Source: Verrucomicrobiia bacterium
GTDB lineage: Bacteria > Verrucomicrobiota > Verrucomicrobiia > Limisphaerales > UBA1319
Assembly (NCBI GenBank): GCA_963664225.1
Contig: OY760937.1
Coordinates: 3,744,001 to 3,808,000 of the forward strand
Reading direction: 5' to 3'
DNA length: 64,000 nucleotides
Part shown: in pieces, positions 8,152 through 40,007 of the stretch
Layout of the letters: each line of letters opens with the position of its first letter
Numbering within the stretch: position 1 is the stretch's first letter
The notes under the pieces: model-generated
Told to the model about the DNA's origin: nothing
Database searches by the model: none
Seen by the model: only the letters and a program-made list of their open reading frames with translations
Position numbers and translations under genes: made by a program

Positions 8152-8227
8152 TGGTGGGCCCAGCCGGATTTGAACCAGCGACCAAGCGATTATGAGTCGC
8201 CTGCTCTAACCGCTGAGCTATGGGCCC
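8152..8227 (-). tRNA. tRNA with CAT anticodon, probably tRNA-Ile2 (lysidine type); tRNA-Met not excluded
   Basis: GGGCCCATAGCTCAGCGGTTAGAGCAGGCGACTCATAATCGCTTGGTCGCTGGTTCAAATCCGGCTGGGCCCACCA: 76-nt cloverleaf with TTC loop and encoded CCA. Confidence 0.95.
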
Positions 8228-8277
8228 AACTAATTGAATTGCAATGACTTAAGCGTGGTCAAAAATAGCCAATTTGA

Positions 8278-8303
8278 CAATCTGATACTGCAATCTGATA
8301 CTG
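8278..8303. repeat. 13-bp tandem direct repeat, possible integrase arm-type or regulatory site
   Basis: caatctgatactg twice, between the tRNA and the integrase ATG at 8309. Confidence 0.6.
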
Positions 8304-8308
8304 CTTGG

Positions 8309-9415
8309 ATGAAAAAGCGCTCCAATCAGCCAGTAACAGTAGCTGAAAGCCAAAGTGACTGGGTAAAGACCCCGACGGCAAATTTGATCCGCTATAAACC
8401 ATCTGGTGTGTATTTCGCCAGAGTTCGGATTCGAGGCAAGCTTTTTCGCCAGACTCTTAAGACTTCGGTCATTAGCGTGGCCAAGCTGCGGCTGGCGGAT
8501 TTCATCAACGAGAAAACGGAAGAGTTGGGGGATGTCTCGCGGGTGGACGCAGGGAGGATGACGGTTGCCGATGCGGTCGCTCTTTTCCATGAGCGCCTCA
8601 ACGGCCAGCAAAACATAAAAGAGGGGGCAAAGGTTTATCGTCGTAAATGCTTGGAGGCCCTTCTTAAATCCTGGCCTGATCTGGAAAGCACGTTGGTTTG
8701 GAAAGTGACCAAGGACGATTGCCTGGCGTGGGCCAAGAAATTTGCCGAAAAATACAGTGCGACGGTTTACAACAACACCGTTGGGACACTCCGCATGATC
8801 TTGGACCTGGCGGTTGAAAAGGGCGCAAGGTCGCAAAACCCCGCCTACGCGATTACAAAAAAGCGGGTGATCCTGAGGGAATTGGTCCTGCCATCGCACG
8901 AGCAATTCGAGAAATTCGTTACGAACATCGAAAAGGCAGGGGCGTGGTGTAGCCAGGAATGCAGTGATCTGGTTCGATTCCTTGCCTTCGGTGGGTTTCG
9001 TAAGACGGAAGCCGCGAATATTCTTTGGGGGGATTGCGATTTTGAGACCGGCCAAATGCGTGTGAGGGTGACAAAGAATGGCAAACCTCGAACCGTGCCC
9101 ATGATCCCCGACATGAAGAATTTGCTTTTGCGTCTCAAGTCCAGCCGAACGGAAGCGTTACCCAGCGAACCGGTCATGCAATTACAGGAATGCCAAAAGG
9201 CCATGGATCGCGCCTTGGAAAAGCTCGGCATGCAACGCATGACGCACCACGATTTGCGGCATCTCTTCGCGACACGTTGCATTGAAAGCGGCGTGGATAT
9301 TCCCACGGTCAGCCGGTGGCTGGGCCATCAGGATGGCGGGGCGCTGGCAATGAAGGTTTACGGCCACTTGCGCAGCGAACATAGCCAGCAAATGGCCCAG
9401 AAGGTCCACTTCTGA
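8309..9415 (+). CDS. Tyrosine recombinase/integrase
   Basis: GFRKTEA, TKNGK, HDLRHLFAT, LGHQDGG, VYGH catalytic motifs; adjacent to the tRNA. ORF track starts at 8234, ATG 8309 preferred. Confidence 0.93.
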   Translation: MKKRSNQPVTVAESQSDWVKTPTANLIRYKPSGVYFARVRIRGKLFRQTLKTSVISVAKLRLADFINEKTEELGDVSRVDAGRMTVADAVALFHERLNGQQNIKEGAKVYRRKCLEALLKSWPDLESTLVWKVTKDDCLAWAKKFAEKYSATVYNNTVGTLRMILDLAVEKGARSQNPAYAITKKRVILRELVLPSHEQFEKFVTNIEKAGAWCSQECSDLVRFLAFGGFRKTEAANILWGDCDFETGQMRVRVTKNGKPRTVPMIPDMKNLLLRLKSSRTEALPSEPVMQLQECQKAMDRALEKLGMQRMTHHDLRHLFATRCIESGVDIPTVSRWLGHQDGGALAMKVYGHLRSEHSQQMAQKVHF

Positions 9416-9582
9416 GTTTTGGAAATTGGTTTGTCTGTGGCCCTGTCTTTATAGGGTCGTTGTGCATCATCCTCAGCCGCACCCCTTCAAACCTGTGGCA
9501 ATCGACTGTAAAATACCCTCAGATTGCCTCTTAAATTCCCCGTATATAGGCCGTTAAAATGAGGCAGAAAGATTAGAAACCT

Positions 9583-10788
9583 ATGCAGCGAAGCGGTCGC
9601 CCCAGTTTAACCTTTTGTCGGTCCAATAGCCCCTTGTTGCACCGTGGTTTTACGATGCTTGAGCTGATCGTAAGCCTTTGTATTGTTGCGGCGCTGGCAG
9701 CAATGATGGTACCCGCGATTATCGGGGCGGTCAATGGTGCCAAGCAGGCTGCCGATAGTCATACGCTGGCGATTCTCAATGACGCACTCACGCGCTACAA
9801 GGTTGAGGGCGGTGGCGTAGCGGCGTTAACGGCCAGTACACCGATTTCCCACGTGATTGCGGCGTTGGGGCAAACGGTAGACTGGGGTGGCTTGAAACAT
9901 CAGTTCCTAGGCAGGGGAGTAACCTACAGAGGCAAGTCCATTGATGCCAAGGGTGTGGCGGCACAGTATCGGTTTACAAGGTATAATACTTACACGGCGG
10001 AAACGGGGGGCACCAGCCCAGTGACGCCTAGTGGGCCCTATGTTTACGTGGCAGATAATATCCATAAGCTCGTATGCAAGTTTGATAGTAGTGAAACCTT
10101 TGTCATGTCTTTCGGAAGTGGCTACCTTAATCAACCCAGTAGTCTCACAATCGATGGCAGCGGGAATATTCTGGTCACAGATATGACCAACCACTGCGTG
10201 GTGAAATTCGATAGTAACGGAGGTTATCTCTCATCCTTCGGTAGCTCAAATCTCAGTTGGCCTCAAGGTATAACCGTCGATAGTAGCGGGAATATCTTAG
10301 TGGTAGATGCTTCCCCCCACTGTGTAAAAAAGTTCAATAGCGGCGGAGGTTATCTCTCATCCTTCGGTAGCTCAAATCTCAGTTGGCCAATCAGCATTGT
10401 CATCGACACTGGAGGTAATATCCTGGTGACAGATTGGACCAGCCATAAAGTTGCCAAATTCGATAGCAGTGGAGGTTATCTCTCATCCTTTGGCAGTGCC
10501 AATCTCACTCGAGCCGACGGCATCGCAATTGATGGCAGCGGAAATATTCTGGTGACTGATGATTCTAGTCATAAAGTCGCAAAATTCGATAGCAGTGGAG
10601 GTTATCTCTCATCCTTTGGCAGCGCCAATCTCACTGGCCCCACTGGAATTGCAGTCGTTAACAGCGGCAATATATTGGTGGCAGATTCTAGCGGCCATTG
10701 TATGGTAAATTTCGACAGCGGCGGAAACTATCTCTCATCCTTTGGGGGCACGAATCTCTCTTGTGCTCAGTATTTTATCGTTCGATAG
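9583..10788 (+). CDS. Prepilin-type N-terminal methylation domain protein fused to an NHL-repeat beta-propeller
   Basis: GFTMLELIVSLCIVAALAAMMVP cleavage motif; about five 42-aa repeats (GGYLSSFGSxNLxxPxGIxxDxxGNILVxD). Confidence 0.85.
   Translation: MQRSGRPSLTFCRSNSPLLHRGFTMLELIVSLCIVAALAAMMVPAIIGAVNGAKQAADSHTLAILNDALTRYKVEGGGVAALTASTPISHVIAALGQTVDWGGLKHQFLGRGVTYRGKSIDAKGVAAQYRFTRYNTYTAETGGTSPVTPSGPYVYVADNIHKLVCKFDSSETFVMSFGSGYLNQPSSLTIDGSGNILVTDMTNHCVVKFDSNGGYLSSFGSSNLSWPQGITVDSSGNILVVDASPHCVKKFNSGGGYLSSFGSSNLSWPISIVIDTGGNILVTDWTSHKVAKFDSSGGYLSSFGSANLTRADGIAIDGSGNILVTDDSSHKVAKFDSSGGYLSSFGSANLTGPTGIAVVNSGNILVADSSGHCMVNFDSGGNYLSSFGGTNLSCAQYFIVR
10219..10760 (+). repeat. 126-bp coding tandem repeats (NHL units)
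   Basis: ggaggttatctctcatcctt at 10219, 10345, 10471 and 10597, with a degenerate fifth copy near 10723. Confidence 0.9.
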
Positions 10789-10913
10789 GGAGTGTTCGCA
10801 AAGTCTTAACGGCATATGGGCGATAGGTATAATGGCTTTATAGCAAAGAGAATAATAAGTGACAAGGTATGGAAGGCATAGGGGCCTAAGGTAATAGAAG
10901 CGAGCGGCAATAT

Positions 10914-11129
10914 GTGAGCACCACCGCAGCCTACAGCGTCACCAACGGTGATACATGGGCTGCAAGCACGGTTCCTAGTGTTGCGTGGAATTCAGTAGTT
11001 TATGGAGCTAGAAAATATGTGGCGACATCTAGTGCTACGCAAGCCGCCTATAGCACCGATGCCGGTGTGACATGGATTCCCATAACACTTCCCGCCCCCG
11101 GCAACTGGTATGTGACCGCCAGCCAATAA
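10914..11129 (+). pseudogene. Fragment of a BNR/beta-propeller-like surface protein
   Basis: AAYSxxxGxTW occurs twice; no good start context. Confidence 0.45.
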
Positions 11130-11431
11130 ACAGTCCCCGACGAAGTTTGCTTGGGCGGGGATTGTAAGATAAACTTGAGCTGGGATTACGCGTTACTCTC
11201 CGCAGGAGCCGGAGGCGTGGACTTCTCCCCGCGTTCCAACATCGCCGCGCGGCATGGGAGCTTGACGCGCCCCATGTCGTCCGCGAAAATGTGCACAAGG
11301 CCGCATTGTGAAGCTATAAGAGCTGAAGGGAACCGGGTGGTCGTCTGGACGGTGAACACAAACTAAAACAAAAAACTGTAAGAGTTTGTTTCAAGAAGTG
11401 TGTGTTAAATTAAATCGCATAGGAATATTGA

Positions 11432-11454
11432 CTGGGGCTTTTCATGAGCCCCAG
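11432..11454 (-). terminator. Hairpin, possible terminator
   Basis: ctggggct-tttcatg-agccccag just downstream of the 11465-11725 gene. Confidence 0.5.
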
Positions 11455-11464
11455 CCGTGGTGGA

Positions 11465-11725
11465 TTACGCCTCTGGGATATCGGGCTGGCTGCCGATCCA
11501 TTCAAACGCTCGGGTTGCCAGCAGGCTGAGAACCAGAAGATTCTGATGGCCGAAACTACCTGATGACTTCCAAGCATCTCCCTCTTTGTAGGAACGCTGG
11601 AAGGTGACGTTGAACACGGGTCCTTTATCGGATTCCTGACGCCAGATGCTGGCGCTGACAGCCCCGTAGCGGATTTTATGCGCGGGCGGATTGTTGGTTT
11701 TCGTTGGCTTGGTTTGATTTTTCAT
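11465..11725 (-). CDS. Small hypothetical protein of mobile elements, possibly ssDNA-binding
   Basis: PAHKIRYGAVSASIW...FNVTFQRSYKEGDAWKSSGSF, a compact beta-rich pattern; ATG start and downstream hairpin. Confidence 0.65.
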   Translation of the reverse strand: MKNQTKPTKTNNPPAHKIRYGAVSASIWRQESDKGPVFNVTFQRSYKEGDAWKSSGSFGHQNLLVLSLLATRAFEWIGSQPDIPEA

Positions 11726-11946
11726 AGGGATACTGAGGTGAAATCATTTGTGAAGCAAGGAGGCGGTCCTTGAACGGGGGAGTGTCGATTAAGAAAAAAA
11801 TAAACGGTAAGACTTGGTATCATTCCTACCCCTTGCACAAGAAGTCCAAAGATATCGGAGGTGTATGGCAAGTCCAAAAAACGCCTTCAAACCGATTCAA
11901 AATGGATGAAGAAACTCCGCACTTAACGGGCTTTCTTCAAGGGATT

Positions 11947-13047
11947 TTAAATCCTGATCCGCTCAATTTCATCGAGGGTGATTTCGTCTTTTGTGCGGTC
12001 GTAAAGCTTGGTGGTGCGAGGGGATTCGTGGGCGGCGATGGCCTGGGCGTTTTCCAGGGTTCCGCCCGCTTCGATATAGGCGGTGATGCCCGTGGCTCGA
12101 AAGGTGTGGCAGCATACGCGGTCTGGCAGCCCTGCTTCCCGAGCCCGGCGCTTGATCATTCTCAAGGCATCGGTACGGCTCATGGCATGGTCTGAAAGGG
12201 TATTAGTGCGGCTGATCGCCGAGCGGAAGAGGGGAGTTTTCTTTGCGTGTTGGAGTCCGGCGGCGGTGATGTAGGCATCCAGATACGCCTCGGCGTTATG
12301 GTGAACGGGGACCTCATGGAATTTGCCGCCTTTTTCATGCAATCGAATCCAAAAGCGCTTTCCGCTGGCGTAATAATCCGAGACCTCCATGCCGACCATC
12401 GCACTGATGCGGGCGAAGGAAAAAACCATGAGCGCAATGAGCGCCCGGTCGCGCAGGCCCGCCAAATCAGGGACGGCGATGCTCTGGCAGTTTTCAATGA
12501 CCGTCCGTAGCAGTGGAATGGAATTGAGCAGTTTACGAGTGTCCTTGGCGGTTAGGACGGGGGTCTTGCCTTTCTTGACCACATGCTTTGGACCGCGCAC
12601 GGAGGCCGCCGGATTGTGGGGCACGATCTGGCCTGTGACGAGCCAGTCAAAGAGCATCCGAATGGCGGCCAGGTGTTGTTTGACCGAGGGGGCCTCGAGG
12701 GCGGTGGTGGCGGTGCGGGATTGAAACCGCTTTCCAGTTTGACTGTCCCGGAAAAACCAACGTTTCCGCGTTAACCGCTCCGGCAATTGCTCCACATAAG
12801 CGGCCACATGAAATGGCCGGAGACTTTTCAAATCCAACTGATGCTTTTCGCTCCAATCGAGGAATTGCACCACGGCTCGGGCGTAGGCTTTGCGGGTATT
12901 GGGATTACGGATGTTGGCGGTAAAGAATTCAATGAAGCGTTGGGTGGCCTCGGGTCCGGCAGCGGCGATGAGTTTAGGAAATGGTCCGCCTGCAAAAGCC
13001 AAAGGAAGGCTGGGTTGAGGGGTGTGCGGGATGAGTTCGTCGGCCAT
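11947..13047 (-). CDS. Tyrosine recombinase (resolvase-like)
   Basis: RDRALI..FARIS, HEKGGK, CHTFRATGIT, AHESPRTTKLYDR. Confidence 0.92.
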   Translation of the reverse strand: MADELIPHTPQPSLPLAFAGGPFPKLIAAAGPEATQRFIEFFTANIRNPNTRKAYARAVVQFLDWSEKHQLDLKSLRPFHVAAYVEQLPERLTRKRWFFRDSQTGKRFQSRTATTALEAPSVKQHLAAIRMLFDWLVTGQIVPHNPAASVRGPKHVVKKGKTPVLTAKDTRKLLNSIPLLRTVIENCQSIAVPDLAGLRDRALIALMVFSFARISAMVGMEVSDYYASGKRFWIRLHEKGGKFHEVPVHHNAEAYLDAYITAAGLQHAKKTPLFRSAISRTNTLSDHAMSRTDALRMIKRRAREAGLPDRVCCHTFRATGITAYIEAGGTLENAQAIAAHESPRTTKLYDRTKDEITLDEIERIRI

Positions 13048-14099
13048 GGAGAATCCTCAGAGAAAGCTTAGGAATGCTTCGAGCCCGCAGGAGGTTGTTG
13101 TTGGACCATCCTTTCGAGCATACCTGACAGTTTGCGGATGGAATCGAAAACTGCAAGGCTTATATGTAAGGCGACATAATACAGTCTATTATATGCGTGT
13201 TGGATGGTCGCCTCGGTTTTTCACTCGATTGATTCATATGATGCCGGAAAGAAAATGATATTTATCAAGGCTCCTTCAATTTTCGGTAGGTGGCAAAATA
13301 GAATTTTGCAAAGCGTGCGCAGAGCGCGGGAAAGTCAGGAGTCGGCCAATGCTGGCGTGCCATGCCTGCCCAAGCAATGGCTTGCTTGCGATAGAAATAC
13401 GACGTTCGGCGTTGGCCAATATTCCCTGAATAGGCCGGAATGATGGAGTGAAATAGCGCAAACTGACGTTCAATCCACGGTCGGGGAGGGGAGGGATTAT
13501 TGCCCTCAACGCAAGCCGAGGAATCAGGTAATTGGCCAAATAAGGACTGGGTATGGATCGAAGGCATGAAGAATTCCCCCTCTTCGTCGGATTCCAAAAC
13601 AACCGAGTGCCGGATGGCAACACAAAAGAAACCAGCAGAATGATCCGTTTGCTGGCTAAACGCTGCGACAGGTGTTCAAATTTGAAAAGCGCCAATCCCC
13701 TTCAAATCTAAATGACGCAAATTGCACTGTTCGAAAAACTGGGACTCGACACTTGCGTAAGCCATGCTCGTGCCAGGGATGCAGATATTGGCAGGACTGA
13801 ATTCGATGAAGCGATAAGTGGCGGAAACGCAATTCGTTAAATCCTTCTTGGAGAGAGCATTCCTGCGAACGTGAGGGCCAAATTGGAAATGGAAAAACTT
13901 GGAACAATGTGCTGATCCAGCGCTAAAAAGTCTCCAAAACGGAGGCCGCCCATTATGATTCATAAAGGACGTTATGAGTCATAAAATAGCTCCTCGACTT
14001 TAAATTGTAGCCGACGCGCGCTGCGCGACATTTTACTGTCAATTTCCAATCACGACAGGTAAAATCCCATCCATTAAGAACGACGCGCATGCGCATTAC

Positions 14100-14535
14100 G
14101 TGATGATCGATCAACTCAAACCGAACCAAGTACAGCGCAGGCTGAATTTCCCTGAGTCGGTCGAAGTCATCGTCATTCTTCCAAGCGATGCCCTGGCAGC
14201 CAAACCAGCCATAAGATGTGTGTCGACGCTCAGCCGCACGGACATCACCGCACCAAGCGTCAGTCTTCAATGCGTATTTGAAATGGCCCTATCCGATAAA
14301 GACACCGACATCCCTAGCCTGTCCCGCGCCGCGCTGCTCCAGAAAATCGAAATACAAAGCTGGTCGCTCAACCCCGACCGCTATGTGGACGTGGCCCATC
14401 GACGAAGCCATGCGCGACGAGGACCGCAAGGAACAGTTCGAAACGCTGAGCGAGGAACTCGAAACCCTCAACTCCACAGCACGGGAGTTGGAAGCTACGA
14501 TTGCCAACAACGTCATGGAGATCCTCGAAGCATGA
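14100..14535 (+). pseudogene. Remnant of a type I restriction-modification M-subunit C-terminus, preceded by a possible helicase N-terminal fragment
   Basis: KIEIQSWSLNPDRYVDVA, then a frameshift to EDRKEQFETLSEELETLNSTARELEATIANNVMEILE (HsdM-like tail). DQLKPNQV..FPESVEVIV resembles SNF2-helicase N-termini (weak). Confidence 0.55.
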
Positions 14536-14705
14536 TGAACCAACCCGTGCGCGTGCGGTTCTGTTCCCTTCTCCATTTGGGAGGGCCTGGGATGGCCGAA
14601 CAAATTCACCCACACTACCGCAAAATCCAAAACCTCCGCTGGACGCGCGACGAACTTCTGCGGCGTCTTCTGTCGGTGTAGATCAATCTTGAAATCGATT
14701 GAACC

Positions 14706-16307
14706 ATGCGCGACGAGTTTCTCCAAAAAACAAAAGACACCTTGGCTAAACGTGTCGGGACACACTGCTCAAATCCACAATGTTGGAAGCTAACGAGTGG
14801 TCCACGGGATGACCCTGAAAAAACGGTCAATATCGGAGTGGCAGCACACATCACTGCTGCGGAAGTTGGTGGCCCACGCTTTGATTCGTCATTAAGCGTT
14901 CGCCAACGTTCTTCCATCAGCAACGCGATTTGGCTCTGCCAGAACTGCTCGAAACTCATCGACAATGATGAATGCCGATACACGGTGGATTTGCTGCGTC
15001 AGTGGAAAACCTTGGCCGAAGAAACCGCGCGCCTCGGCGTGGAAACCACTGGCGCTACGATCCCGTTACAGCCAATATCCGACGTTGAAGTGGTCCAGGC
15101 ATACGCCCAATGCTTTGAACGACAGGCATTTCAGGACCATTTAAGGCAAGAAGGTTCTATGGAGGCTTTCGACAAAGCGATTGAGGACACGATTGTCGGC
15201 ATCAGCACAGGAAGCATCTGCACTCTGGATGGCAATGTCCTCATGCATGCGCGAGGGAAGGTGTTCTTAAAGGACCGAAGACTTCGCGAGCGAATGGATG
15301 TCATCGTAGATTTACTCCGGTGGATTCGCTTTCGCTACGCCGATGCAGTTAAACGGAAGGCAATCACCTTTCATGAGGATTCCGGCGGTACAACCTCCTA
15401 TTGCATCCACGAGCAGGAATTGGCTCAATGGATGGATACCACTCGCACTCAAGTGCTGGAGTTGTTCAGCGAAGTCTGCCAACAAGTCGGCATTCATCCT
15501 CCCTTGCTTAGTCGCGGCCAAAGGCAAGAATTCTCTAGCGCCTCAGTTCCCACTCCGGCGTTTTCGAGCGTAGCGCCGACTAACACTCCAGCAGAGACAT
15601 ATCAGAAGCAAATATCACGATTTGTTCATGAGCTTAAAACACCCCTTGGCGCGATTAGAGGCGCTGTAGAGTTCCTCCAACAGACCGACGATCCGAACCA
15701 GAAGAACGAGTTGGCCAGAGACGTCGTTTCTTGGTGCATGTTAATCCATCGGTTGCTCCAAACCATCTCATTTCTCGGAACGTCGAATTGCAGTTATTTC
15801 TTTCAAAAAACACTACTGCTGCGAGACATCATCACCCCAGCAGCGAATTCGATTGAGATGCTCCTCAGGGAGCGTGGATTCGACAGGTCACAGATACATA
15901 TAACCGACCTGTCAGTCATTTCCCCCTTGTTTTTGGATCGTTCGTGCTTCCAACAAGTGTTTTTCATTCTTTTGTCCAACGCAATTAAATATGCCCTGCC
16001 AAAAGGGCCCCTTCGTGTCCTCGTCAGGGCAAATCGAACCCAGAGCGCGCACCAGATTTCAATCTGCGACTGGGGGATCGGCATCGAGGAAGGCGAAAAG
16101 AATTCGTTGTTTCTTCCGGGTTTTCGCGGCCAGAAGTCTATAGCCATGAATGCTCACGGAGATGGGCTTGGGCTTACGCTGGCAAGAACTATTGTGGAGG
16201 TGCACGGGGGCACAATTGGTGTTCAATCGCTCCGCTCGCCTACCGAATTTCTGATTAGCTTACCGCGGACTTTGGAGTCCATTCTTCCCGGCCAATGGCA
16301 CCCATGA
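14706..16307 (+). CDS. HNH-endonuclease-like domain fused to a cytoplasmic histidine kinase (HisKA + HATPase)
   Basis: N-term CSNPQC..AAHITAA..GGPRF..NAIWLCQNC; C-term H-box HELKTPL, N-box LSNAIKY, G1 DWGIGI, G2 GDGLGL; no TM segment seen. Confidence 0.85.
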   Translation: MRDEFLQKTKDTLAKRVGTHCSNPQCWKLTSGPRDDPEKTVNIGVAAHITAAEVGGPRFDSSLSVRQRSSISNAIWLCQNCSKLIDNDECRYTVDLLRQWKTLAEETARLGVETTGATIPLQPISDVEVVQAYAQCFERQAFQDHLRQEGSMEAFDKAIEDTIVGISTGSICTLDGNVLMHARGKVFLKDRRLRERMDVIVDLLRWIRFRYADAVKRKAITFHEDSGGTTSYCIHEQELAQWMDTTRTQVLELFSEVCQQVGIHPPLLSRGQRQEFSSASVPTPAFSSVAPTNTPAETYQKQISRFVHELKTPLGAIRGAVEFLQQTDDPNQKNELARDVVSWCMLIHRLLQTISFLGTSNCSYFFQKTLLLRDIITPAANSIEMLLRERGFDRSQIHITDLSVISPLFLDRSCFQQVFFILLSNAIKYALPKGPLRVLVRANRTQSAHQISICDWGIGIEEGEKNSLFLPGFRGQKSIAMNAHGDGLGLTLARTIVEVHGGTIGVQSLRSPTEFLISLPRTLESILPGQWHP

Positions 16308-16759
16308 AAACAAAACCGATCTTACTGATTGTTGACGACGACCATAAAGCAATGAGCTACTTCGTGATGGCTCTTGAGAACTCCGGCTACCGCGTGACGC
16401 AAAAATGCACGGCCTCCGATGCTATAGATTTTCTGAGCGCGTATTCGCAGACCGTGGACGGCGTTATACTCGATATGATGCTACCGCTGGGCCATGTGTC
16501 TCCCACTTGGAACGCTGATGACGAAATGTTCGGCGGGAAAGAAGTTTATAGGTATCTCCAGTCTACGCATCCAGGAATCCCCATTCTTGTTTTGTCGAAT
16601 ATTTCCAGTGGGAGATTGCTGAACGAGTTCCCTTCCAGCGACACCGTCCAAGTGGCCGTTAAGTGCGAGCATTCCCCTTTCATGATCGTTGACTTAATAA
16701 ACCGCTTGGTTGGCTCGACAAGCTCGGGTGGGGACGAAGAACACACCCGAAACCCCTGA
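16304..16759 (+). CDS. Stand-alone response regulator receiver domain
   Basis: LIVDDD, ILDMMLP, ILVLS, conserved K; ATGA overlap with the kinase stop. Confidence 0.88.
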   Translation: MKTKPILLIVDDDHKAMSYFVMALENSGYRVTQKCTASDAIDFLSAYSQTVDGVILDMMLPLGHVSPTWNADDEMFGGKEVYRYLQSTHPGIPILVLSNISSGRLLNEFPSSDTVQVAVKCEHSPFMIVDLINRLVGSTSSGGDEEHTRNP

Positions 16760-16768
16760 ACTGCCATC

Positions 16769-18730
16769 ATGATGAGCTGGAACACAAACCTAGCAGGAGA
16801 GCACCTCGCCATCGCCGCATCTACAGCCCAGCGTCTCCGGGTAATGGCAGGGCCAGGGACAGGAAAGAGTTTTGCAATGAAACGCCGCATCGCTCGGCTA
16901 ATCGAAATCGATGGCGTTGACCCAAAGCGCATACTTGCCGTCACGTTCACACGCACGGCAGCTCGAGACCTGGAAAAAGAACTTCAAGACATGGGCGTGC
17001 CGGGCTGCGAAAACATTGTGGCAGGAACAGTTCATTCGTATTGCTTCCAACTCTTGCTCCGAAACGACGTATTTGAACTGCTGAGCCGTGTCCCGCGCGG
17101 TTTGATTACATTCAACAACCGGGGGATCTACGGCTACGAAGTCGAACCGTTGCTTGCTGACCTCCAACCGCTAGGTCACTTTGGAGCAAAGCGAGACATG
17201 ACGAAGCGAATGCGCGCGTTCGAAGCAGACTGGGCGCGTTTGCAACATGAGCAGCCGGGCTGGCCGATTGATCGTCTCGATGTTCAATTTCATCATTTGC
17301 TCACTGCTTGGCTGCGTTTCCATCGCGGGATGCTGATAGGCGAGCTTGTCCCAGAGGCGTTGCGTTACCTTCGAGACAATCCTGCATGCTCCGCTCTCCA
17401 AGTATTCGACCACATCGTGGTGGATGAGTATCAAGACTTAAACCGCGCGGAGCAGGAACTCATTGATGTTCTTTCAGCCGGGAAGAAGGTTGCCATTGTC
17501 GGGGACGTGGACCAGTCCATCTACCGTTTCAGATACGCTCACCCGGAAGGCATTGAAGATTTCAGCAATCGCCACCCAAATGTTGAGGATCATGAACTCG
17601 ACGAATGCCTCCGCTGCCGTGCATTGATTGTCACGGTGTCAGACAACCTTATTCGAGGCAATTACCCAGCAGGGGCGGACCACCGGCTCGTCACACTGCA
17701 ACCACAGCCCGGTCCTGCCACGGTTCGTGTGGTTCAATGGCCAACGTTGGATTCGGAGGCGGATGGCATTGCGGCATTCATCCAGCATTTGGTAACGCAG
17801 CGCGGATTTACAGCGAAGGATATTCTGGTTCTTTCCCCGCGTCGGTTAATAGCCAACGAAATCAAACGCCGCTTGGCAGCTCCCGGATTCGGAATTGCCG
17901 CGCATAGTTTTTACAACGACAAACTGCTTGAACCCGATGCGGCTCAAGTAGCCATGACGAAGCTGCAACTCCTGTGTAATCCTGATGATCGGGTCGCTCT
18001 CCGGTACTGGCTCGGATCAGACAGCCCTACTTGGCGTCGAGGCCAGTATGTGACCTTGCGCGACTATTGCGAGGGGCACGACAGTTCACCAGCCGATGTA
18101 TTGGCTCAAGTGGCGGCAGGACAGCTTCAGTTGGCCGGCTTGGACAGACTGACCACTCGTTACCAAGAGCTGCAGGCCGAAGTGAACCGACTGAAACAAC
18201 TGAGCTTTGCTGACCTGTTTAGTGATCTCTTTCCCGCTGGCACTGTGTGGTCTGATCCGATTCGCGAATTGGTGACCGGGAAGGTTGACGCCGTTGAGGA
18301 TGCTCAAGGATTGCTTGATTTACTTCGGACAGAAATCACTCAACCAGAAATGCCAGCCGAAGGTGATTTCGTGAGGATAATGAGCCTTCACAAATCGAAG
18401 GGCTTGACTAGCCGAGTCACAATCATTGTCGGCTGCATTCACGGGCTGATTCCTTTTGTGGATAATGACCTTCCGCCAGCCGAGCGAGCTGCTCACCTTC
18501 AGGAGCAACGGCGCGTTTTCTACGTCGCACTCACTCGAGCAAAGGAAGTGTTGTTGGTGTCTTCCGTCGCAAGTATTCCCCGCGCTATGTCCCACCAGAT
18601 TGGAGCGGTGCTTCGAGGTGGTAATGCGCAACAAGGCAATACGGTCGCTTGCCAGTTTCTCCATGAACTAGGGCCGCAAGCGCCCGCGGCACTTCACGGA
18701 GCGAGTTGGAGAGCGGCAGGTTACCAATAG
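16769..18730 (+). CDS. UvrD/REP-family SF1 helicase
   Basis: AGPGTGKS, VTFTRTAA, VDEYQD, VGDVDQSIY, SLHKSKGL, FYVALTRAK. Confidence 0.93.
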   Translation: MMSWNTNLAGEHLAIAASTAQRLRVMAGPGTGKSFAMKRRIARLIEIDGVDPKRILAVTFTRTAARDLEKELQDMGVPGCENIVAGTVHSYCFQLLLRNDVFELLSRVPRGLITFNNRGIYGYEVEPLLADLQPLGHFGAKRDMTKRMRAFEADWARLQHEQPGWPIDRLDVQFHHLLTAWLRFHRGMLIGELVPEALRYLRDNPACSALQVFDHIVVDEYQDLNRAEQELIDVLSAGKKVAIVGDVDQSIYRFRYAHPEGIEDFSNRHPNVEDHELDECLRCRALIVTVSDNLIRGNYPAGADHRLVTLQPQPGPATVRVVQWPTLDSEADGIAAFIQHLVTQRGFTAKDILVLSPRRLIANEIKRRLAAPGFGIAAHSFYNDKLLEPDAAQVAMTKLQLLCNPDDRVALRYWLGSDSPTWRRGQYVTLRDYCEGHDSSPADVLAQVAAGQLQLAGLDRLTTRYQELQAEVNRLKQLSFADLFSDLFPAGTVWSDPIRELVTGKVDAVEDAQGLLDLLRTEITQPEMPAEGDFVRIMSLHKSKGLTSRVTIIVGCIHGLIPFVDNDLPPAERAAHLQEQRRVFYVALTRAKEVLLVSSVASIPRAMSHQIGAVLRGGNAQQGNTVACQFLHELGPQAPAALHGASWRAAGYQ

Positions 18731-18796
18731 TCACAGCGCTTGTCTCCTTGTCGGCAGGCTAGAAATAACTTTTTGCCCGGTTTCCGTAGAGGGAGG

Positions 18797-20008
18797 CTAG
18801 TGTAGTTTTTCACATATAACTGGTGTTATATGTTCTGCGGGTTATTTTACCTGCATGCCGCGACACGCAATGACTGTCAACCTAACCGAAACTGATCGCC
18901 AAGAGCTGGAACGATGGGTGGCAGCACATCACACCCCCCAGCAAGTTTCGCAACGATGCCGTATCGTTTTGGCTGCAGCTCAAGGCCAGCAAGACAAGTT
19001 GATCGCCGACGACCTGAGCCTCAATTTCAAGACGGTGGCTTTGTGGCGGAAGCGTTTTGCGAGCGAAGGCCCTGAGAGCCTGTGGGATGTGGCCGAGGGG
19101 CGCGGACGCAAGCCCGCCTTAACTGCCGAAGATGTCGAGCAAGTGATCGCGGCGACACTCCAAACCAAGCCTGCGGGAGCCACGCACTGGAGTTGTCGCG
19201 CGATGGCCAAAGCCCGAGGCGTGAGCAAGGCTACCGTGAACCGGATCTGGCAAAGCCATCAGATCAAGCCGCATCGGACCAAAGGCTTCAAACTTTCGCG
19301 GGATCCGGAATTTCTGAGGAAGCTCACCGATGTTGTTGGCTTGTATCTGAACCCTCCCGAGAAGGCATTGGTGCTCTGTGTCGATGAAAAGAGCCAAATT
19401 CAGGCCTTGGATCGCACGCAGCCAGGATTGCCACTCAAGAAAGGTCGTTGTGGAACAATGACCCATGACTACAAGCGCAACGGCACGACGACGTTATTCG
19501 CCGCCCTGGAACTGGCGCAAGGCAAGGTCGTTGGTCAATGTTACGCACGCCATCGCCACCATGAGTTTTTGAAGTTTATGCAACGGTTGGATGCGGAGTT
19601 TCCCGGTGAGATCAAGTTGCATGTGGTCATGGATAATTATGGCACGCATAAGCACCCGCGAGTGCAGCGTTGGTTCAAACGGCATGACCGTTTCATAGCT
19701 CATTTCGTCCCAACCAGCTCGAGTTGGCTAAACCTGGTGGAACGGTGGTTTGGTGAGTTGACCGGCAAACGCATTCGCCGTGGAGTCTTTGTCAGCGTGG
19801 CGGATTTGCAGTCGGCCATCGCGGAATTCCTCGCTGCCTGGAACGACGCCCCCCAACCATTCGTGTGGACGGCGACGGTCGAGTCGATTGTCGATAAACT
19901 AAGCCGGTGCAAACATACGCTCGAGCGGATTAAACCCGGATGCACCCGTTTCAGAATGCGAAAAACAAAGGAATAATAACTCCAGTCGTTTGTGAGACAC
20001 TACACTAG
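18797..20008 (+). mobile_element. IS630-family insertion sequence
   Basis: Imperfect terminal IRs ctagtgtagtttttcaca / tgtgagacactacactag with CTAG at both ends. Confidence 0.92.
18855..19976 (+). CDS. IS630 family transposase
   Basis: HTH plus VDEKSQIQAL, DYKRNGTTTLF, MDNYGTHK, SSWLNLVERWF. Confidence 0.96.
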   Translation: MPRHAMTVNLTETDRQELERWVAAHHTPQQVSQRCRIVLAAAQGQQDKLIADDLSLNFKTVALWRKRFASEGPESLWDVAEGRGRKPALTAEDVEQVIAATLQTKPAGATHWSCRAMAKARGVSKATVNRIWQSHQIKPHRTKGFKLSRDPEFLRKLTDVVGLYLNPPEKALVLCVDEKSQIQALDRTQPGLPLKKGRCGTMTHDYKRNGTTTLFAALELAQGKVVGQCYARHRHHEFLKFMQRLDAEFPGEIKLHVVMDNYGTHKHPRVQRWFKRHDRFIAHFVPTSSSWLNLVERWFGELTGKRIRRGVFVSVADLQSAIAEFLAAWNDAPQPFVWTATVESIVDKLSRCKHTLERIKPGCTRFRMRKTKE

Positions 20009-20427
20009 GAAGAGGTTCTCGTAGTCCTGAACGGTATCGTTCTTCTTCTGTGGATCGAAATGATCCACTTCCATGCAAGTTAAGCCGCCGGCGTAGCGCA
20101 AGTGCTGCATCGAGTAAGCACAGCGGTCCTGGAAATCGCGTCGTAGCGCGGGCAGGGCTTTTTCCCGGTAATTCCGAGGCGTCAGAACGCAATCAGGCGC
20201 CGGGCCTCGGGGAATTCGTGGAGGTGAAACCTTTGACATAGTCTTCTAAAGCGCCGAGGACTTTCCTTAAAGAGGCGAGCCGCTGGTCTTGTAGGGCGGC
20301 TTCATCGACTGGCATCGGCGATAAGGTCTTCCGACGCGAGTCGGCCAACTGGTCGAGCTCATCGCGTCCCGAGCGAGAAATTCTGCCGGTCGCTTCCAGT
20401 CGCACCAACTCACGGAAACGCTGCTCC
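20007..20427. repeat. 421-bp direct duplication of 21580-22000 (3' end of the hypothetical gene and 5' half of the HNH gene)
   Basis: Identical by eye at offset 1573; the ORF track shows the same peptides in both places. Confidence 0.93.
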
Positions 20428-21200
20428 TCCAACATCGCCAGCTTGGCGGTCAACAATTTGTGATCCGCCTCCAGAGATGCCATGCGGTTCCAATTGGCCT
20501 CCGCATTGGCGCGGGCTTCTTTGGGCAGATACTGGAACCAGTCAGGCTTCATCGTTATACGTTATATAAAAACAACAACACGTAAAAAGGTCAATAAGAA
20601 AAAACGTTCATGATTATTTTGTCATTCTTTTCTATCCCCGGCAGGTTCCCTGCGCCACCTGTCCTTGCGCTAGGTCTAGGTCAGATCAATTCCACCACCC
20701 AAAAGCAATGCCAACTCTTGGCTCCTCAGGATCACATCCCGTGAACCCCTGGCACAGGTTTGTGGCGCCCGTAGCCAGATAAATCAGGGTTGCGGCCCTA
20801 TGGTTGAACATGGGGGAAGGAGGGACAGGTGTTGACGGACTTTCGCCGGATCAAAGCCATGAGCCAGTTCCAGGCACAAAGCGCCCAGCTAGCACAGTTG
20901 GTAAGGCGGGGATCCGAACGGGAGTGGCGTCCGCAAGGGCACAAACTCCACGTTCGGTGGAGAGGAATTAGGCGGGGAAATATGCCGCGCCCTCCGCAGC
21001 CACAAGGTGAAGGTTGAAAAACACAGGCCCATCCGTTGGGCATACTGGCGCTGCGTTAAGCCGCTACGCTGATATTCATCGAATCGCACCAGCTCATCCG
21101 GCGCATAACCGCGAAGTCTTCGCGAAGAAAGTAATCTTTTACGCCCCCACCAAGCTCCGTGAATCCAATGATGCGGTTCTTTGGTTTTGATGTGTTTCAC
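20428..21200 (-). mobile_element. Degenerate IS66 remnant (tnpA-like, internally deleted tnpB, tnpC N-terminus)
   Basis: EYQRSGLTQRQYAQRMGLCFSTFTLWL (TnpA-like); MFNHRAATLIYLATGATNLCQGFTG...QELALLLGGGIDL with stops (TnpB-like); coiled-coil TnpC-like start at 20552. Confidence 0.7.
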
Positions 21201-21221: not shown

Positions 21222-21812
21222 CTAAGGAGGAGGAATGGGTGGAATCATGAAATCTGTCGCCTTGGCAAAAATTGCAAACAACTCGGCAGGAAGACTGACA
21301 TTCGTGGACCTCGCTATGCTTTTCAGCTCGGCCAAGTATGCCAGAATGGCAGCCCGGAGCTTTCGCTCTTCTACGAGGTGTGGTGCGTTCAGGTCACAGA
21401 TTCGAATCTGGGTCCTGCCAGGCGGCGTCGCTCCAACCAATTCGGCTGTCGAGGCATCTTCAAAAATGTGTTCGCCATAGTCCGCCTCTTCGCAGAGGTT
21501 GAGTAACCGCATGTCTTGGCTGGCCTCCTCATCCGTTGACCAGAACATTCCTTTGGCCCGGTTGCAGTGGCGGGAGGCCAGGAAGAGGTTCTCGTAGTCC
21601 TGAACGGTATCGTTCTTCTTCTGTGGATCGAAATGATCCACTTCCATGCAAGTTAAGCCGCCGGCGTAGCGCAAGTGCTGCATCGAGTAAGCACAGCGGT
21701 CCTGGAAATCGCGTCGTAGCGCGGGCAGGGCTTTTTCCCGGTAATTCCGAGGCGTCAGAACGCAATCAGGCGCCGGGCCTCGGGGAATTCGTGGAGGTGA
21801 AACCTTTGACAT
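21222..21812 (-). CDS. HNH endonuclease (PtuB/retron-associated-like pattern)
   Basis: LRRDFQDRCAYS, EVDHFDP, YENLFLASRHCNRAKG, RLLNLC. Confidence 0.82.
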   Translation of the reverse strand: MSKVSPPRIPRGPAPDCVLTPRNYREKALPALRRDFQDRCAYSMQHLRYAGGLTCMEVDHFDPQKKNDTVQDYENLFLASRHCNRAKGMFWSTDEEASQDMRLLNLCEEADYGEHIFEDASTAELVGATPPGRTQIRICDLNAPHLVEERKLRAAILAYLAELKSIARSTNVSLPAELFAIFAKATDFMIPPIPPP

Positions 21813-22482
21813 AGTCTTCTAAAGCGCCGAGGACTTTCCTTAAAGAGGCGAGCCGCTGGTCTTGTAGGGCGGCTTCATCGACTGGCATCGGCGATAAGGT
21901 CTTCCGACGCGAGTCGGCCAACTGGTCGAGCTCATCGCGTCCCGAGCGAGAAATTCTGCCGGTCGCTTCCAGTCGCACCAACTCACGGAAACGCTGCTCC
22001 GAAATTTCATCCCATGCCACAGCCGGTGCAGTAGACAGGATGGTGGGGGCATTAGCTCTTTCCGTTTCCTCGCAAAGAGCAAGCCAATCAGCGGGTGGCC
22101 GACTATGCAAATAATCGAAGGCGGCATCTGCAGCATTGGCAATGTCAGGGTCGCAATAGCCGAGAAATGGGACCAGAGCAATACAGTGACCACGCCCCGC
22201 CAGACGGTGAGCCTTCAGTGCATGAATCTGAGTGATTATCGTTCCCTTAACTTGTGGGTCTACGCTCGGCTGAGGCGAAACGCGATCACCGACCTGACAA
22301 TGAGTTTGGATCAAATTCAACTCAAGATATTCAACGTAATCCTCGATCACAGCCGAGTGGCTCTGTTTGCGGTTTCTTGGCATCTGCTGCCAGAGTGCGC
22401 CCGCGGCTACGTTAACGGTATCGACGAGCCGTCGTATGGTTTCCCAGAAATCTGGAGCCAGAGCTATCTGTGTAGTGGGCAT
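21766..22482 (-). CDS. Hypothetical protein between the receiver and HNH genes
   Basis: Open frame in an operon context, overlaps the HNH start; ATG at 22482 preferred. Confidence 0.7.
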   Translation of the reverse strand: MPTTQIALAPDFWETIRRLVDTVNVAAGALWQQMPRNRKQSHSAVIEDYVEYLELNLIQTHCQVGDRVSPQPSVDPQVKGTIITQIHALKAHRLAGRGHCIALVPFLGYCDPDIANAADAAFDYLHSRPPADWLALCEETERANAPTILSTAPAVAWDEISEQRFRELVRLEATGRISRSGRDELDQLADSRRKTLSPMPVDEAALQDQRLASLRKVLGALEDYVKGFTSTNSPRPGA

Positions 22483-22495
22483 AGAATGGTCCTCG

Positions 22496-22903
22496 CTATG
22501 CCCCGAGCATCTTCTTAACAAAATCCGCAAAAGCAAAAGGTGAAACCTCAAACTTCGCCTTACACAGGGTTCCCTGAGGCAACACCTGAACCACTTCGGG
22601 GTCGTTGTAGTTCGTCAAAGCCACTAATGGCACACCAGGGAATTTCTTGCGGATAGCTTGGCTGATGAACACACCAGAGCGAAGCCCGCCGTCGGTTTCT
22701 TCCAGCGTTAGACGAGAGCCCGGCGGCATCATCATGTCCAGAACGATGATGTTTGGAGGTTGTGATGTGGCATCGTCAAGCCACTTGAAGGTTTCGTCCG
22801 TGGAATCAATCTGTCTGACCTCCAAGCCGCGAATTTGTAAGGCCTCAATGTAATAATCCATCGGACCGTGGTCGTCATCGATGAGAATAGCGGTGAACTT
22901 CAT
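22496..22903 (-). CDS. Stand-alone response regulator receiver domain
   Basis: ILIDDD, VLDMMMP, VALT, conserved K; ATGA overlap with the kinase stop at 22900. Confidence 0.88.
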   Translation of the reverse strand: MKFTAILIDDDHGPMDYYIEALQIRGLEVRQIDSTDETFKWLDDATSQPPNIIVLDMMMPPGSRLTLEETDGGLRSGVFISQAIRKKFPGVPLVALTNYNDPEVVQVLPQGTLCKAKFEVSPFAFADFVKKMLGA

Positions 22904-25542
22904 AATTGTTGCAAACGATTCATTTTCGGAGACATATGACGTAACGCGCCGGGCAGGCGTATCGTCACCCGGGTAGGCTCTCGCGGGGATGAGAATTCGA
23001 CGGTCCCGCAATGCACACTGATAACCGCCTTGACGATTGCCAGCCCGATTCCCATACCGGCGACGTCGCGGTGCTGAGAACTAAGCTTCCCGCGAACACC
23101 TGCGAGGAACATGGTTTCGCCCTTTTCATCGCCTTTGTCCAAGCCGATGCCCCAATCCTCGACTTCGATGACATAGGAAGTCGGGTTCTTGGGCTCGCCT
23201 TCCACACCCACTCTGACATCCACTCGGAAGGAGTCCGCGCCGTCGTTGTATTTGATCGCGTTGACGAGGAGGTTGAAGAAGACCTGTTGGAACATCAGAC
23301 GGTCCACTTCAAGCCAGGGAATCACCCCCTGAAACTGGGCAATGTGGATTCGGTCATCGGGCAGGCGATGCTTCTTTAGCAAGGCCTTAAGCTGATTCCG
23401 CACTGGAATCAAAACCCTGGTTGCCAGATCGGTGCGCTCGAACTTCGGCTTCAACTCGTCTATGATGGCCCCAAAGAGGTTCACGTTGTCCACAAGGCGA
23501 CTCATCAACGCCTGATATGAAAAGATGTCGTCAATGTAGTCGGCACCGAACTCGCTTTTGAGATCCGTAATGCGGCGCTCTTTCAGACGTTCCCGGAGGA
23601 AGTCAGCCGCTCCCGTGATTCCAACGAGCGGATTCTGCAATTCGTGGGCGAGGCGAGTCAAAGCGAATGACTGCCGTCGTTGGTTGATGAGCAGGTCCAA
23701 ATGAGGAAGCGCTGTCTGAATGATCGCATCGAGTCTTGCTGCGTCGTCATCCGTAAACGCGGTCGAGGTATGCCCCACTCCTCTTGAAATCCTGTTGTGA
23801 AGCCGAACAACGCCAATGAGATTACCGCCTCGTCGAGCCAGCGGAGCCGCAAGGCACTCTCGCCGATCGAGCGTCGTCAATTCAAATGACCTTCCCTTGT
23901 GCGCCTCGTTAGAAAACTGCATTTCACGCTCCTTCCAAGTGCGACCCGTCATACCTTCCCCTTCAAGATAGTAGTGCTCGCTTTCAGGAACGTCCTTGTC
24001 CCATTCGATTCGGCTTCTGGCTTCGCCTACGGGTTCGAGTCGGGTCTGGGATTCATCCACGAGCCAGATTGTCGCCTTTTCACAATGGAATAGTCGCTCG
24101 AGGTGGTGCATGAGGGCATTCACGAAAGGGACGACCCCGTTTCTGACTTCTCCACACAGATGGGCCGTGGCCCCTGCCGACGCAGAGCACATCTCGTCAG
24201 TCAGGTAATCTGCCCAAACCGAGATCAGATCGGCATAATGTTCAGCCCAGCGACATTCGTCCTCCGCCATCTCGCCATGCCGCACTGGAAGCTCCCTCTC
24301 GACGAAGACATTCAGAATATAGCGGATGTGATGAGCGTTGGAAGAATTGAAGACGGGTACGGTTATCATCCAGCGCGACTTGAGTTTCCTGAGCAGCTCC
24401 TGGTCGTCAAATTGGGATTGGATACCCTTATCGGATAGGTCGTGACACAACACCCTAGAGCTCTCGACGACACTTCCGGTAAGAGAATTCTTCCGATCGT
24501 ATCTTACCTTGAATGCTTGCGGGAGGTACTCAGCGAGCGAGGCAGCGAGCATGTAGAGCTCATCGGTAAAAGGGTTGTAGCTCCACAGCATGACCGCTTC
24601 CGCTTCGAAAGCACTTCGGAGTAGACGGACGGCCAAGGGGTAAAACACATCAGGACCACGAACGGGTGCTGAGGCAAACTGGCGGGCCATTTGGACCTCT
24701 TGTAGCATTTGGCCGGCAGAGGCTTGGAACAGACTACGGTGGCGTTTCTTCTCCAACTCGGCAACTTGCTCGGCCTTCGGGGAGAAAGCTCGAAAATACT
24801 TCCCAGCCCACTTGGTCGCCCAAAATGCGCAGGTGAATGCAGCATGTTCTCTAGAAACTTCAAAGTGATCTTGTTCCAAAATCACCCAGCCATTGAAACC
24901 GATCTTGTGGAGTGTTTCCATCACCTTCTCAACGGGTACGATCCCCTCGCCGGGTGGGCAAAATCCGTGCGCGTAGCGGTGGGACCATCGCCCATAATCC
25001 GGTTTCCAGTCTTTGATATGTACGGCGGCCAGGAGGCCGAGAGCCTGATATTTTTTGACGGCTGCCACAGGATCATCTTCGGCCACGATGGCGTGGGCTG
25101 TGTCGATGATCACCTTTAAATTATGAGAGGACACCTTTTCCAGACGAGCGTCGACGTGTTTCAACTTGCGCACTGGCATAAACCAGTGCGGATGGAGAGC
25201 GAGTGTGAACGGGTTCGGAGGCTCCAATGCTTGGTCACACGCGTCCGTCCAAGAATCAATGTAAAGGTACGCGGAGCGGTCATTTCCGCAAAACGCCATC
25301 CGTTCCTCCAATGTCCCGCCAACTAGGCCTATCAATTCGAGACCATGTGCGTGAAGGCGCTCCTTGAGGCTTTGTAGGGTGCCGACGGGCCGGGCAGTCC
25401 CGTTCTCCCGCACGTAGATGTCACGGTGGTTCTGACCGAACTCCACGCCCTCATACCCGCAGGCCGCGACGACCGCCAGTAGGCCGTCGAGATCGTCGAT
25501 CCGACGTCCCCAGACTACGGTTTGGAAACCAAGTCGCATCAT
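22900..25542 (-). CDS. Sugar phosphate isomerase/AP-endonuclease-2-like TIM barrel + probable 2x GAF + histidine kinase
   Basis: GYEGVE, ALHPH, DTAH, HIKD, PGEG, GWVILEQD (IolE/xylose-isomerase-like barrel); GAF-like EGMTG..LAAPL..IGVVRLHN..FTDDD; HELQNPL, NAIKY, DWGIG, GMGIGL. Confidence 0.87.
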   Translation of the reverse strand: MMRLGFQTVVWGRRIDDLDGLLAVVAACGYEGVEFGQNHRDIYVRENGTARPVGTLQSLKERLHAHGLELIGLVGGTLEERMAFCGNDRSAYLYIDSWTDACDQALEPPNPFTLALHPHWFMPVRKLKHVDARLEKVSSHNLKVIIDTAHAIVAEDDPVAAVKKYQALGLLAAVHIKDWKPDYGRWSHRYAHGFCPPGEGIVPVEKVMETLHKIGFNGWVILEQDHFEVSREHAAFTCAFWATKWAGKYFRAFSPKAEQVAELEKKRHRSLFQASAGQMLQEVQMARQFASAPVRGPDVFYPLAVRLLRSAFEAEAVMLWSYNPFTDELYMLAASLAEYLPQAFKVRYDRKNSLTGSVVESSRVLCHDLSDKGIQSQFDDQELLRKLKSRWMITVPVFNSSNAHHIRYILNVFVERELPVRHGEMAEDECRWAEHYADLISVWADYLTDEMCSASAGATAHLCGEVRNGVVPFVNALMHHLERLFHCEKATIWLVDESQTRLEPVGEARSRIEWDKDVPESEHYYLEGEGMTGRTWKEREMQFSNEAHKGRSFELTTLDRRECLAAPLARRGGNLIGVVRLHNRISRGVGHTSTAFTDDDAARLDAIIQTALPHLDLLINQRRQSFALTRLAHELQNPLVGITGAADFLRERLKERRITDLKSEFGADYIDDIFSYQALMSRLVDNVNLFGAIIDELKPKFERTDLATRVLIPVRNQLKALLKKHRLPDDRIHIAQFQGVIPWLEVDRLMFQQVFFNLLVNAIKYNDGADSFRVDVRVGVEGEPKNPTSYVIEVEDWGIGLDKGDEKGETMFLAGVRGKLSSQHRDVAGMGIGLAIVKAVISVHCGTVEFSSPREPTRVTIRLPGALRHMSPKMNRLQQL

Positions 25543-33801: not shown

Positions 33802-33883
33802 TGGTGAATCCGCGTGGACGTGGGAAAATCATCACGTCGCCCGAGATGGCGCTGTGCGTAGCAACCTTAAACCATAAAACATT

Positions 33884-34180
33884 ATGATAGGCTCCAATAA
33901 CCCGACGGTGCGGCTTGAAAACAATCCCCATAAGGATTTGGAATCGGCCACGGTGAGAAATCTTTCGAACGATAATGTAAACGCATCATTACCAAGACCC
34001 TTGGTGTTTACGGTGGAAGAATCGGCTGCGGCGCTTCATGTGAGTACCAAGACGATTCGACGGCTCCTCTACCGTGGCGTGCTCACCAGTTCCAGGGCGC
34101 TGCGAAAAAAACTCATCCCACGGCAGCAGATTGAGGAGTTTCTTAAGGCAACCTGTGATGTTCCCAAGCGCTTAATATAA
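33884..34180 (+). CDS. Excisionase-like HTH DNA-binding protein
   Basis: FTVEESAAALHVSTKTIRRLLYRG..LIPRQQIEEFL. Confidence 0.82.
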   Translation: MIGSNNPTVRLENNPHKDLESATVRNLSNDNVNASLPRPLVFTVEESAAALHVSTKTIRRLLYRGVLTSSRALRKKLIPRQQIEEFLKATCDVPKRLI

Positions 34181-39995: not shown

Positions 39996-40007
39996 CCCTG
40001 AGATTTC

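Follow-up and report, generated by a model that had tools for sequence, protein, structure and literature searches.

The window (the whole stretch of 64,000 nucleotides that was analysed) encodes a protein in which an HNH domain and an unnamed helical domain are joined to a histidine kinase, and the gene is followed by one for a receiver without an output domain (Table 1). The HNH-kinase fusion is real, and comparison with its relatives indicates that it is old and that it is rare. The conserved wiring is apparently undescribed. We read the two genes as a mobile, likely defensive two-component cassette, in which the kinase would carry the effector and the receiver would act as a switch or buffer; the probability of this reading is estimated at about 0.4.

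Table 1. Position of the fusion gene, its domains and its neighbours in the window.
Feature	Positions	Strand	Basis
Remnant, 3' end of a type I methyltransferase gene (hsdM)	14218..14535	+	PADLOC MTase_I, E 1e-4
Remnant reading like the 3' end of hsdS, ends 3 bases before the fusion start	14620..14703	+	77% nucleotide match to the sequence immediately preceding uvrD in L220
HNH - helical domain - linker - histidine kinase gene, 533 aa	14706..16307	+	Single open ORF
Cap5/SPARHA-clade HNH, residues 1-115	14706..15050	+	Sequence profiles, predicted fold
Unnamed helical domain, residues 121-265	15066..15500	+	Predicted structure, relatives
Pro/Ser-rich linker, residues 266-297	15501..15596	+	Alignment, model
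HisKA-HATPase, residues 298-522	15597..16271	+	Pfam
Stand-alone receiver (REC), no output domain	16304..16759	+	Pfam, alignment
UvrD/GajB-like helicase, neighbouring cargo	16769..18730	+	Pfam, PADLOC
Sister cassette: TIM-GAF-GAF kinase, receiver, 261-aa ORF without assigned family, PtuB-like HNH	21222..25542	-	Pfam, PADLOC

Architecture and age of the fusion

The preliminary description of the gene had placed HNH motifs, a helical domain, a linker and a complete HisKA-HATPase in a single ORF. The motifs quoted there are present, and Pfam confirmed the kinase (HisKA at residues 303-336, E 1e-6; HATPase_c at residues 414-521, E 8e-16). The N half of the protein, comprising the HNH and helical domains, yielded no Pfam domain, and neither a transmembrane nor a GAF/PAS domain was found by Pfam for the kinase. 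Residues 1-271 were modelled with AlphaFold from a 119-row alignment at a pLDDT of 87; the full-length model was weaker (pLDDT 68), and its C half matched HK853-type kinases. Positions 13500-18861 were covered without differences by one short-read contig each in two of four sequencing runs (X1 and X3, from two studies), one of which may be the source sample itself. Because these contigs span the region identically, the junction of kinase and HNH is not an assembly artefact. No RNA data set was listed among the sequencing runs that contain the region.

A search with the N half gave nine full fusion clusters, including the present one, among the 120 best of 399 matches; they were 58-82% identical over the N half. 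An exhaustive search added a tenth (P0121, 39% identity). Two proteins were left out of this count and of the trees, namely P0126, which has a peptidase M41 tail and looks chimeric, and P0123, which is a fragment. The ten fusions formed one clade (0.964) in a FastTree phylogeny of 61 sequences, nested among kinase-free HNH-helical proteins, and IQ-TREE with 36 of those sequences gave 95.9/99 for the split between fusions and non-fusions, as read from the unrooted tree. In the kinase tree, rooted on two distant kinases, the fusions were not one clade; the subgroups agreed with those of the N-half tree. A recent chance fusion, as had been considered at the outset, is not supported, given the single clade and the retention of key residues of both halves in all ten proteins, and the occurrence in ten clusters means that the fusion is not unique to this genome.

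Among 116 loci from metagenomes and genomes, 77 carried both N-half domains and only one of these (L081) continued into a kinase, with some contigs of the other 76 ending too early to tell. Since proteins without the kinase greatly outnumber the fusions, the N half has no need of a kinase. Searches of 400 other genomes of the class and of 60 relatives brought up no second fusion. The solo form was present in records of Acidobacteriota, Bacillota genera, a cyanobacterium, Planctomycetota and an archaeon; six of 45 viral loci carried the HNH and helical domains, and none of the 45 contained a kinase or receiver. Two further candidates were rejected: a 532-codon frame in G110 encodes an HNH followed by a repeat-like helical tail instead of a kinase, and L104 holds a solo gene.

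The predominance of the kinase-free form counts against an effector under control of the kinase, as does the fact that DNA context was available for two of the ten fusions (the window and L081). It would suit a reading without regulatory coupling, in which the HNH-helical part functions in the same way as its solo relatives, and the kinase either provides a dimer scaffold or, after an old read-through fusion, rides along with the receiver. The linker is flexible, and other tails were found behind the same module: in P0017, a separate fusion, the tail is a degenerate HATPase-like one that lacks the phospho-His region, and P0124 and P0126 carry tails of their own, so that the HNH-helical module appears to accept C-terminal passengers. 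A passenger or scaffold is nevertheless distinctly improbable. The kinase part of the fusions drifts to 32% identity yet keeps its phospho-His, N-box and G-boxes in all ten proteins, the subgroups of the two trees agree, and the receiver, coupled through an ATGA overlap, is kept in both loci.

The HNH domain and its active site

Residues 4-115 matched the SAVED-HNH/Cap5 effectors (E 2e-15) and PDC-M68A (E 5e-22) in PADLOC. A sequence search of the PDB with the fusion protein gave Cap5 7rwk (E 3e-4) and 9om4 (E 1e-9), which the SPARHA paper (PMC12738770) cites, and with the profile of 119 rows these values improved to 2e-17 and 1e-27, respectively. The modelled N half matched Cap5 in Foldseek (E 1.4e-5) and in VIA (Z 14.3, rmsd 2.1 A over 105 residues); in the predicted model the beta-beta-alpha-metal fold and the zinc finger are superimposable on those of Cap5. 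PADLOC, PDB profile, Foldseek and VIA thus agree with the earlier assignment as a Cap5-like HNH, and the N-terminus, on which that assignment depended, models as an HNH fold. PDC-M68A was the best-scoring PADLOC profile for this HNH subfamily (118/119 members); it is an untested PADLOC candidate whose match spans the HNH only and not the helical domain, and no paper on it was found in the literature searched. An Atlas search with the homologue P0122 gave unnamed HNH clusters and HNH-CTD10/11 clusters, which is a lead only.

The zinc ligands of the domain are C21, C26, C78 and C81, the general base is H48, and N73 and D86 are present as well. In Cap5 of Pseudomonas syringae (P. syringae), His56 acts as the general base, and the catalytic Mg is bound by His91 and Asp95 (PMC12141522). 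These residues align to H48, S82 and D86 of the fusion in the profile alignment, i.e. a serine occupies the position of the Mg ligand His91. Counted over ungapped rows of the 119-row alignment, H48 was present in 114/114, N73 in 118/118, D86 in 118/118 and D88 in 110/118. The helix pattern was matched by 234 of 256 proteins compared, and the equivalent of His91 was missing in 233 of these 234; Cys was followed by Ala, Gly or Ser in 222, and His by Ala or Gly in nine. A His at position 82 was seen in eight rows of the 119-row alignment, to which seven distant HNH loci had been added.

The preliminary description had remarked on the His that is missing after the Cys pair. Compared with Cap5 the motif is odd indeed, but it is not peculiar to this copy: given its absence from 233 of 234 relatives, the loss of the Mg-binding His is a trait of the whole HNH subfamily and not decay of this gene. 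The invariant general-base His speaks for an enzyme that cuts with an altered metal site, and the missing metal ligand for one that is dead or weak. The HNH domain may not cut DNA, since the Mg-ligand His is absent almost throughout and no tested member with such a site was found; the caution already voiced about its activity was justified, and the loss of the ligand counts against an effector role. The sequences point to a common HNH subfamily that lacks the Mg-binding His of Cap5 and keeps the rest of the site. Distant HNH relatives in L235 (3492-4280) and L236 (2992-3780) are also without the Mg-binding His; their genes sit on enterobacterial plasmids of about 110 kb with phage-like genes and are possible tractable test cases.

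The helical domain, the kinase and the receiver

The helical domain is predicted by AlphaFold to form a four-helix bundle with two beta-hairpins. No credible Pfam match was found in 38 members and no Foldseek match was found for the domain, modelled as part of the N half and not folded alone. A match to CTD7, a C-terminal domain of Lamassu/ABC-3C nuclease effectors, appeared in 4/119 members at E 0.024; it was not reproduced with the helical domain alone and was not among the VIA neighbours listed. A reading as HPt was dropped, His being absent from the conserved columns. The domain also follows an Mrr-like domain in L121 (1480-2502, minus strand; Mrr_cat E 6e-4) and, between hsdS- and hsdR-like genes in L228 (1387-2307, minus strand), a domain that looks like PD-(D/E)xK by motif reading. 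Because of its position behind PD-(D/E)xK-type domains, it is a module common to nuclease-type proteins, which speaks for the effector reading. The two loci also represent a single-gene nuclease-plus-helical family. The domain recurs behind different nucleases, in candidate single-gene defence proteins from many phyla and from viral contigs.

Mean identity among the ten fusions was 71% for the HNH, 68% for the helical domain, 48% for the kinase and 23% (mean pairwise) for the linker, although the first two figures may be inflated because nine of the ten were collected with the N half as query. The higher conservation of the HNH and helical domains compared with the kinase would likewise favour an effector. 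Residues 269-292 of the linker had a pLDDT below 50 in the full-length model and are predicted to be disordered. Sensors of kinases usually couple through rigid helices; a disordered and unconserved linker fits a tether better than rigid sensor coupling. A complex prediction for a homodimer of the N half scored 0.22 against a mark of 0.42 and was counted neither for nor against a dimer.

H308, N425, D455 and the G-box glycines are intact in all ten fusions, and D11, D12, D57, S98 and K120 are intact in the receiver. The sequence hallmarks of an orthodox class I histidine kinase with a cognate receiver are thus present on both sides. The ATG of the receiver gene overlaps the stop codon of the kinase (ATGA), with an in-frame ATG also upstream at 16295; the receivers, 152-154 aa long, consist of a single REC domain. 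Promoter-like sites were no more frequent than chance would give (3 seen, 4.5 expected). In the kinase tree the fusion kinase falls within a distinct subfamily, with support of 100/100 against two outgroups. The N-termini of most other members are TIM-GAF-GAF, GAF or PocR; this picture rests on about a dozen matches of the exhaustive search, and a protein search with the kinase region gave only four fusion proteins. P0159 joins an Mrr-like domain (weak, E 0.005) to a kinase of the same subfamily.

The best paralogues in the genome of both the fusion kinase and its receiver are the pair of the sister cassette, 6-9 kb away on the opposite strand. The TIM-GAF-kinase architecture recurs in P0140, P0190 and P0241, and a second TIM-GAF-GAF kinase at E 1e-60 was not found in 400 other genomes of the phylum searched. 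Two other members of this kinase subfamily would again favour an effector: that of P0159 is fused to an Mrr-like domain, and that of the sister cassette lies upstream of an HNH gene. Beside an IS630-type element, positions 19997-20552 (minus strand) hold a cut-off partial duplicate of the 3' end of the 261-aa ORF and the 5' end of the HNH gene.

An effector and a sensor had been proposed beforehand as the two alternatives for the HNH, and these are indeed the ones to be weighed. The N-terminal position, which holds sensors in most sister kinases, counts against an effector. The HNH-helical part could be the input: a weak or dead nuclease fold would bind DNA or a phage product in place of the GAF or PocR sensors, and the receiver would act on a host protein or on the defence genes that follow. 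The loss of the Mg-binding His throughout the family and the intact residues of kinase and receiver are in line with this. So are the VIA neighbours of the helical domain after Cap5, generic four-helix bundles that include the sensor domains McpS (Z 10.5) and LytS (Z 9.4), but these values lie in the range that VIA calls a common helical arrangement. The disordered linker and the invariant general-base His are difficult to reconcile with a sensor, a fixed downstream target is absent in both loci, UvrD is also found apart from the cassette, and no conserved partner that could receive a signal accompanies the solo protein. Overall, we consider a sensor rather doubtful, if a serious contender.

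A two-gene unit and its possible working

In the window the hsdM remnant and the hsdS-like end are followed by the fusion, the receiver, UvrD and an IS630-type transposase. In L081 an hsdM-like remnant precedes the fusion and receiver, after which come Sir2, HerA and hsdR fragments; the fusion and receiver and a complete Sir2-HerA pair (PADLOC E 7e-105 and 6e-142) occupy positions 8160-13317, within type I R-M remnants. The hsdS label in the window and the hsdM-like label in L081 are our presumption from motifs. Both fusion loci with DNA context thus sit inside type I restriction remnants, which supports an effector role, and a receiver without output domain follows the kinase in each. In L220 a UvrD 90% identical to that of the window directly follows the same hsdS-like end, without a kinase. 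Neither kinase nor receiver was found near five UvrD relatives in the DNA examined; the relatives lie in R-M or Hma-type loci, one of them in an Hma-like locus. The conserved unit consists of two genes, because the third gene differs (UvrD or Sir2-HerA) and UvrD occurs without the kinase. The helicase, which had been suggested as a partner, is not a fixed one; the conserved partner of the fusion is the receiver. With a receiver that lacks an output domain and a next gene that varies between the two loci, the HNH is the only conserved candidate output.

The flanks of solo HNH-helical genes were scanned for 87 of 221 ORFs (35 loci), among which neither a conserved partner nor a conserved ATPase neighbour, such as the SMC-like ATPase that goes with Lamassu/ABC-3C effectors, was found. 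Some neighbours are of defence type (TIR, AbiEii, GmrSD, Schlafen, AAA_13, AAA_21, DUF4011 helicase); many are unannotated or housekeeping genes.

In the effector reading, a pre-existing HNH-plus-helical protein would have been tethered to an intact soluble histidine kinase. Histidine kinases are dimers. The HNH domains of Cap5 and SPARHA are switched on by tetramerisation (PMC12738770), and a kinase dimer would hold two HNH domains, i.e. half of the tetramer that these enzymes need. In uninfected cells the receiver would hold the nuclease inactive, either by binding the kinase or by draining its phosphate, a role like that proposed for DtcB of Detocs. On infection, a cue that the helical domain may bind would shift the phosphorylation or binding state, whereupon dimers would pair, DNA would be cut and abortive infection would result. 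For cutting, the subfamily would use D86, and possibly D88, at an altered metal site where Cap5 has its His-plus-Asp pair. Architecture, fold, residues, clade, location and the lack of a fixed third gene are observed; we infer every regulatory step. The cassette is directly testable, as it comprises two genes in 2 kb.

In the defensive two-component systems considered here, a sensor kinase passes phosphate to a receiver, which either bears the effector itself or drives transcription of the effector (bioRxiv 10.1101/2023.01.24.525353 and 10.1101/2025.09.30.679545 describe such systems). The wiring would be reversed here, because the only conserved candidate output sits on the kinase. A more far-reaching form of this idea, which we hold to be unlikely, is an inverted two-component immunity: the bare receiver would be an antitoxin-like brake on the killing nuclease of the kinase, and a loss or rewiring of phosphotransfer in infection would allow kinase dimers to pair into an HNH tetramer that cuts with a His-less metal site. 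If true, that metal site would be common to a large HNH subfamily.

Detocs consists of the kinase DtcA, the stand-alone receiver DtcB, which is proposed to be a phosphate buffer, and the receiver-effector DtcC; some of its effectors are endonucleases (bioRxiv 10.1101/2023.01.24.525353). Compared by domain content, the present cassette shares a soluble histidine kinase and a bare receiver of DtcB-type architecture in a defence setting. Unlike Detocs, it has no receiver-effector gene (neither the next gene, UvrD, nor Sir2 in L081 has a REC domain), a TPR sensor was not found, the N half being HNH plus helical bundle, and its candidate effector is on the kinase, in two genes instead of three. Without a receiver-effector and a TPR sensor the cassette is not a member of Detocs; by analogy, its proposed working would be most like that of Detocs, with the logic rearranged.

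The HNH shares its clade, fold, general-base His and helix Asp with CBASS Cap5, which is HNH-SAVED (PMC12141522), and with SPARHA, in which the HNH accompanies a short Argonaute (PMC12738770). Unlike in these systems, there is no SAVED, cyclase or Argonaute and the control module is a kinase; the Mg ligand His91 is replaced by Ser, Ala or Gly, and the fourth zinc ligand is usually Cys. A C-terminal SAVED domain is absent, in that PADLOC and PDB matches were essentially to the HNH only and residues 298-522 are kinase. Ambrosia (AbrR-A-B-C-D; bioRxiv 10.1101/2025.09.30.679545) also combines a kinase, a receiver and an HNH nuclease in one anti-phage unit. As the preprint describes it, control of transcription is proposed for its receiver, which bears a wHTH, its HNH is encoded by a type IV-like gene of its own and a methylase forms an integral part; here the receiver is without wHTH and only the hsdM remnant lies upstream, with no intact N6 methylase. 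The OLD-family nuclease GajA of Gabija was not matched by PADLOC in genes flanking the helicase of the window. The cassette is not Ambrosia, CBASS or Gabija. A precedent for a nuclease N-terminal to a kinase-type domain in defence loci is found beside BREX, where a Schlafen RNase is joined to a minimal histidine kinase with a wHTH (PMC12839542); it differs in being an RNase and not an HNH, in its minimal kinase with wHTH, and in that no cognate receiver is mentioned in the portion of that paper available. An HNH-kinase fusion was not found in the openly accessible article texts searched; the architecture may be listed in the effector table for Detocs or in the domain survey for SPARHA. The accessible parts of PMC13092281, PMC8195603, PMC11090510 and PMC12829572 contained nothing specific on it.

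The cassette region lies downstream of a tRNA-Met and an integrase (8152-9415). Positions 31189-49882 encode what we take to be a VirD4-like ATPase, a MobF-type relaxase, ParA, a DNA methylase and an ArdC-like gene, presumably an integrative mobile element. Such surroundings, with integrase, tRNA and relaxase, and the UvrD that follows in the window would accommodate an island-borne signalling pair outside defence, which senses DNA damage or the state of the island and acts through the helicase next to it or through repair proteins of the host. This we regard as very improbable: the HNH belongs to a clade of immune effectors, L081 has Sir2-HerA in place of UvrD, and several solo relatives lie beside TIR, AbiEii, GmrSD, Schlafen and AAA genes, even if many of their neighbours are unannotated or housekeeping. 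Further along the window (53979-63927), an unusual cluster was labelled by sequence reading as a MACPF-like ORF, an HD-like ORF, a ParA-like gene, a radical SAM gene, a sodium symporter and an ORF that joins a HerA-like ATPase to a Ser/Thr kinase.
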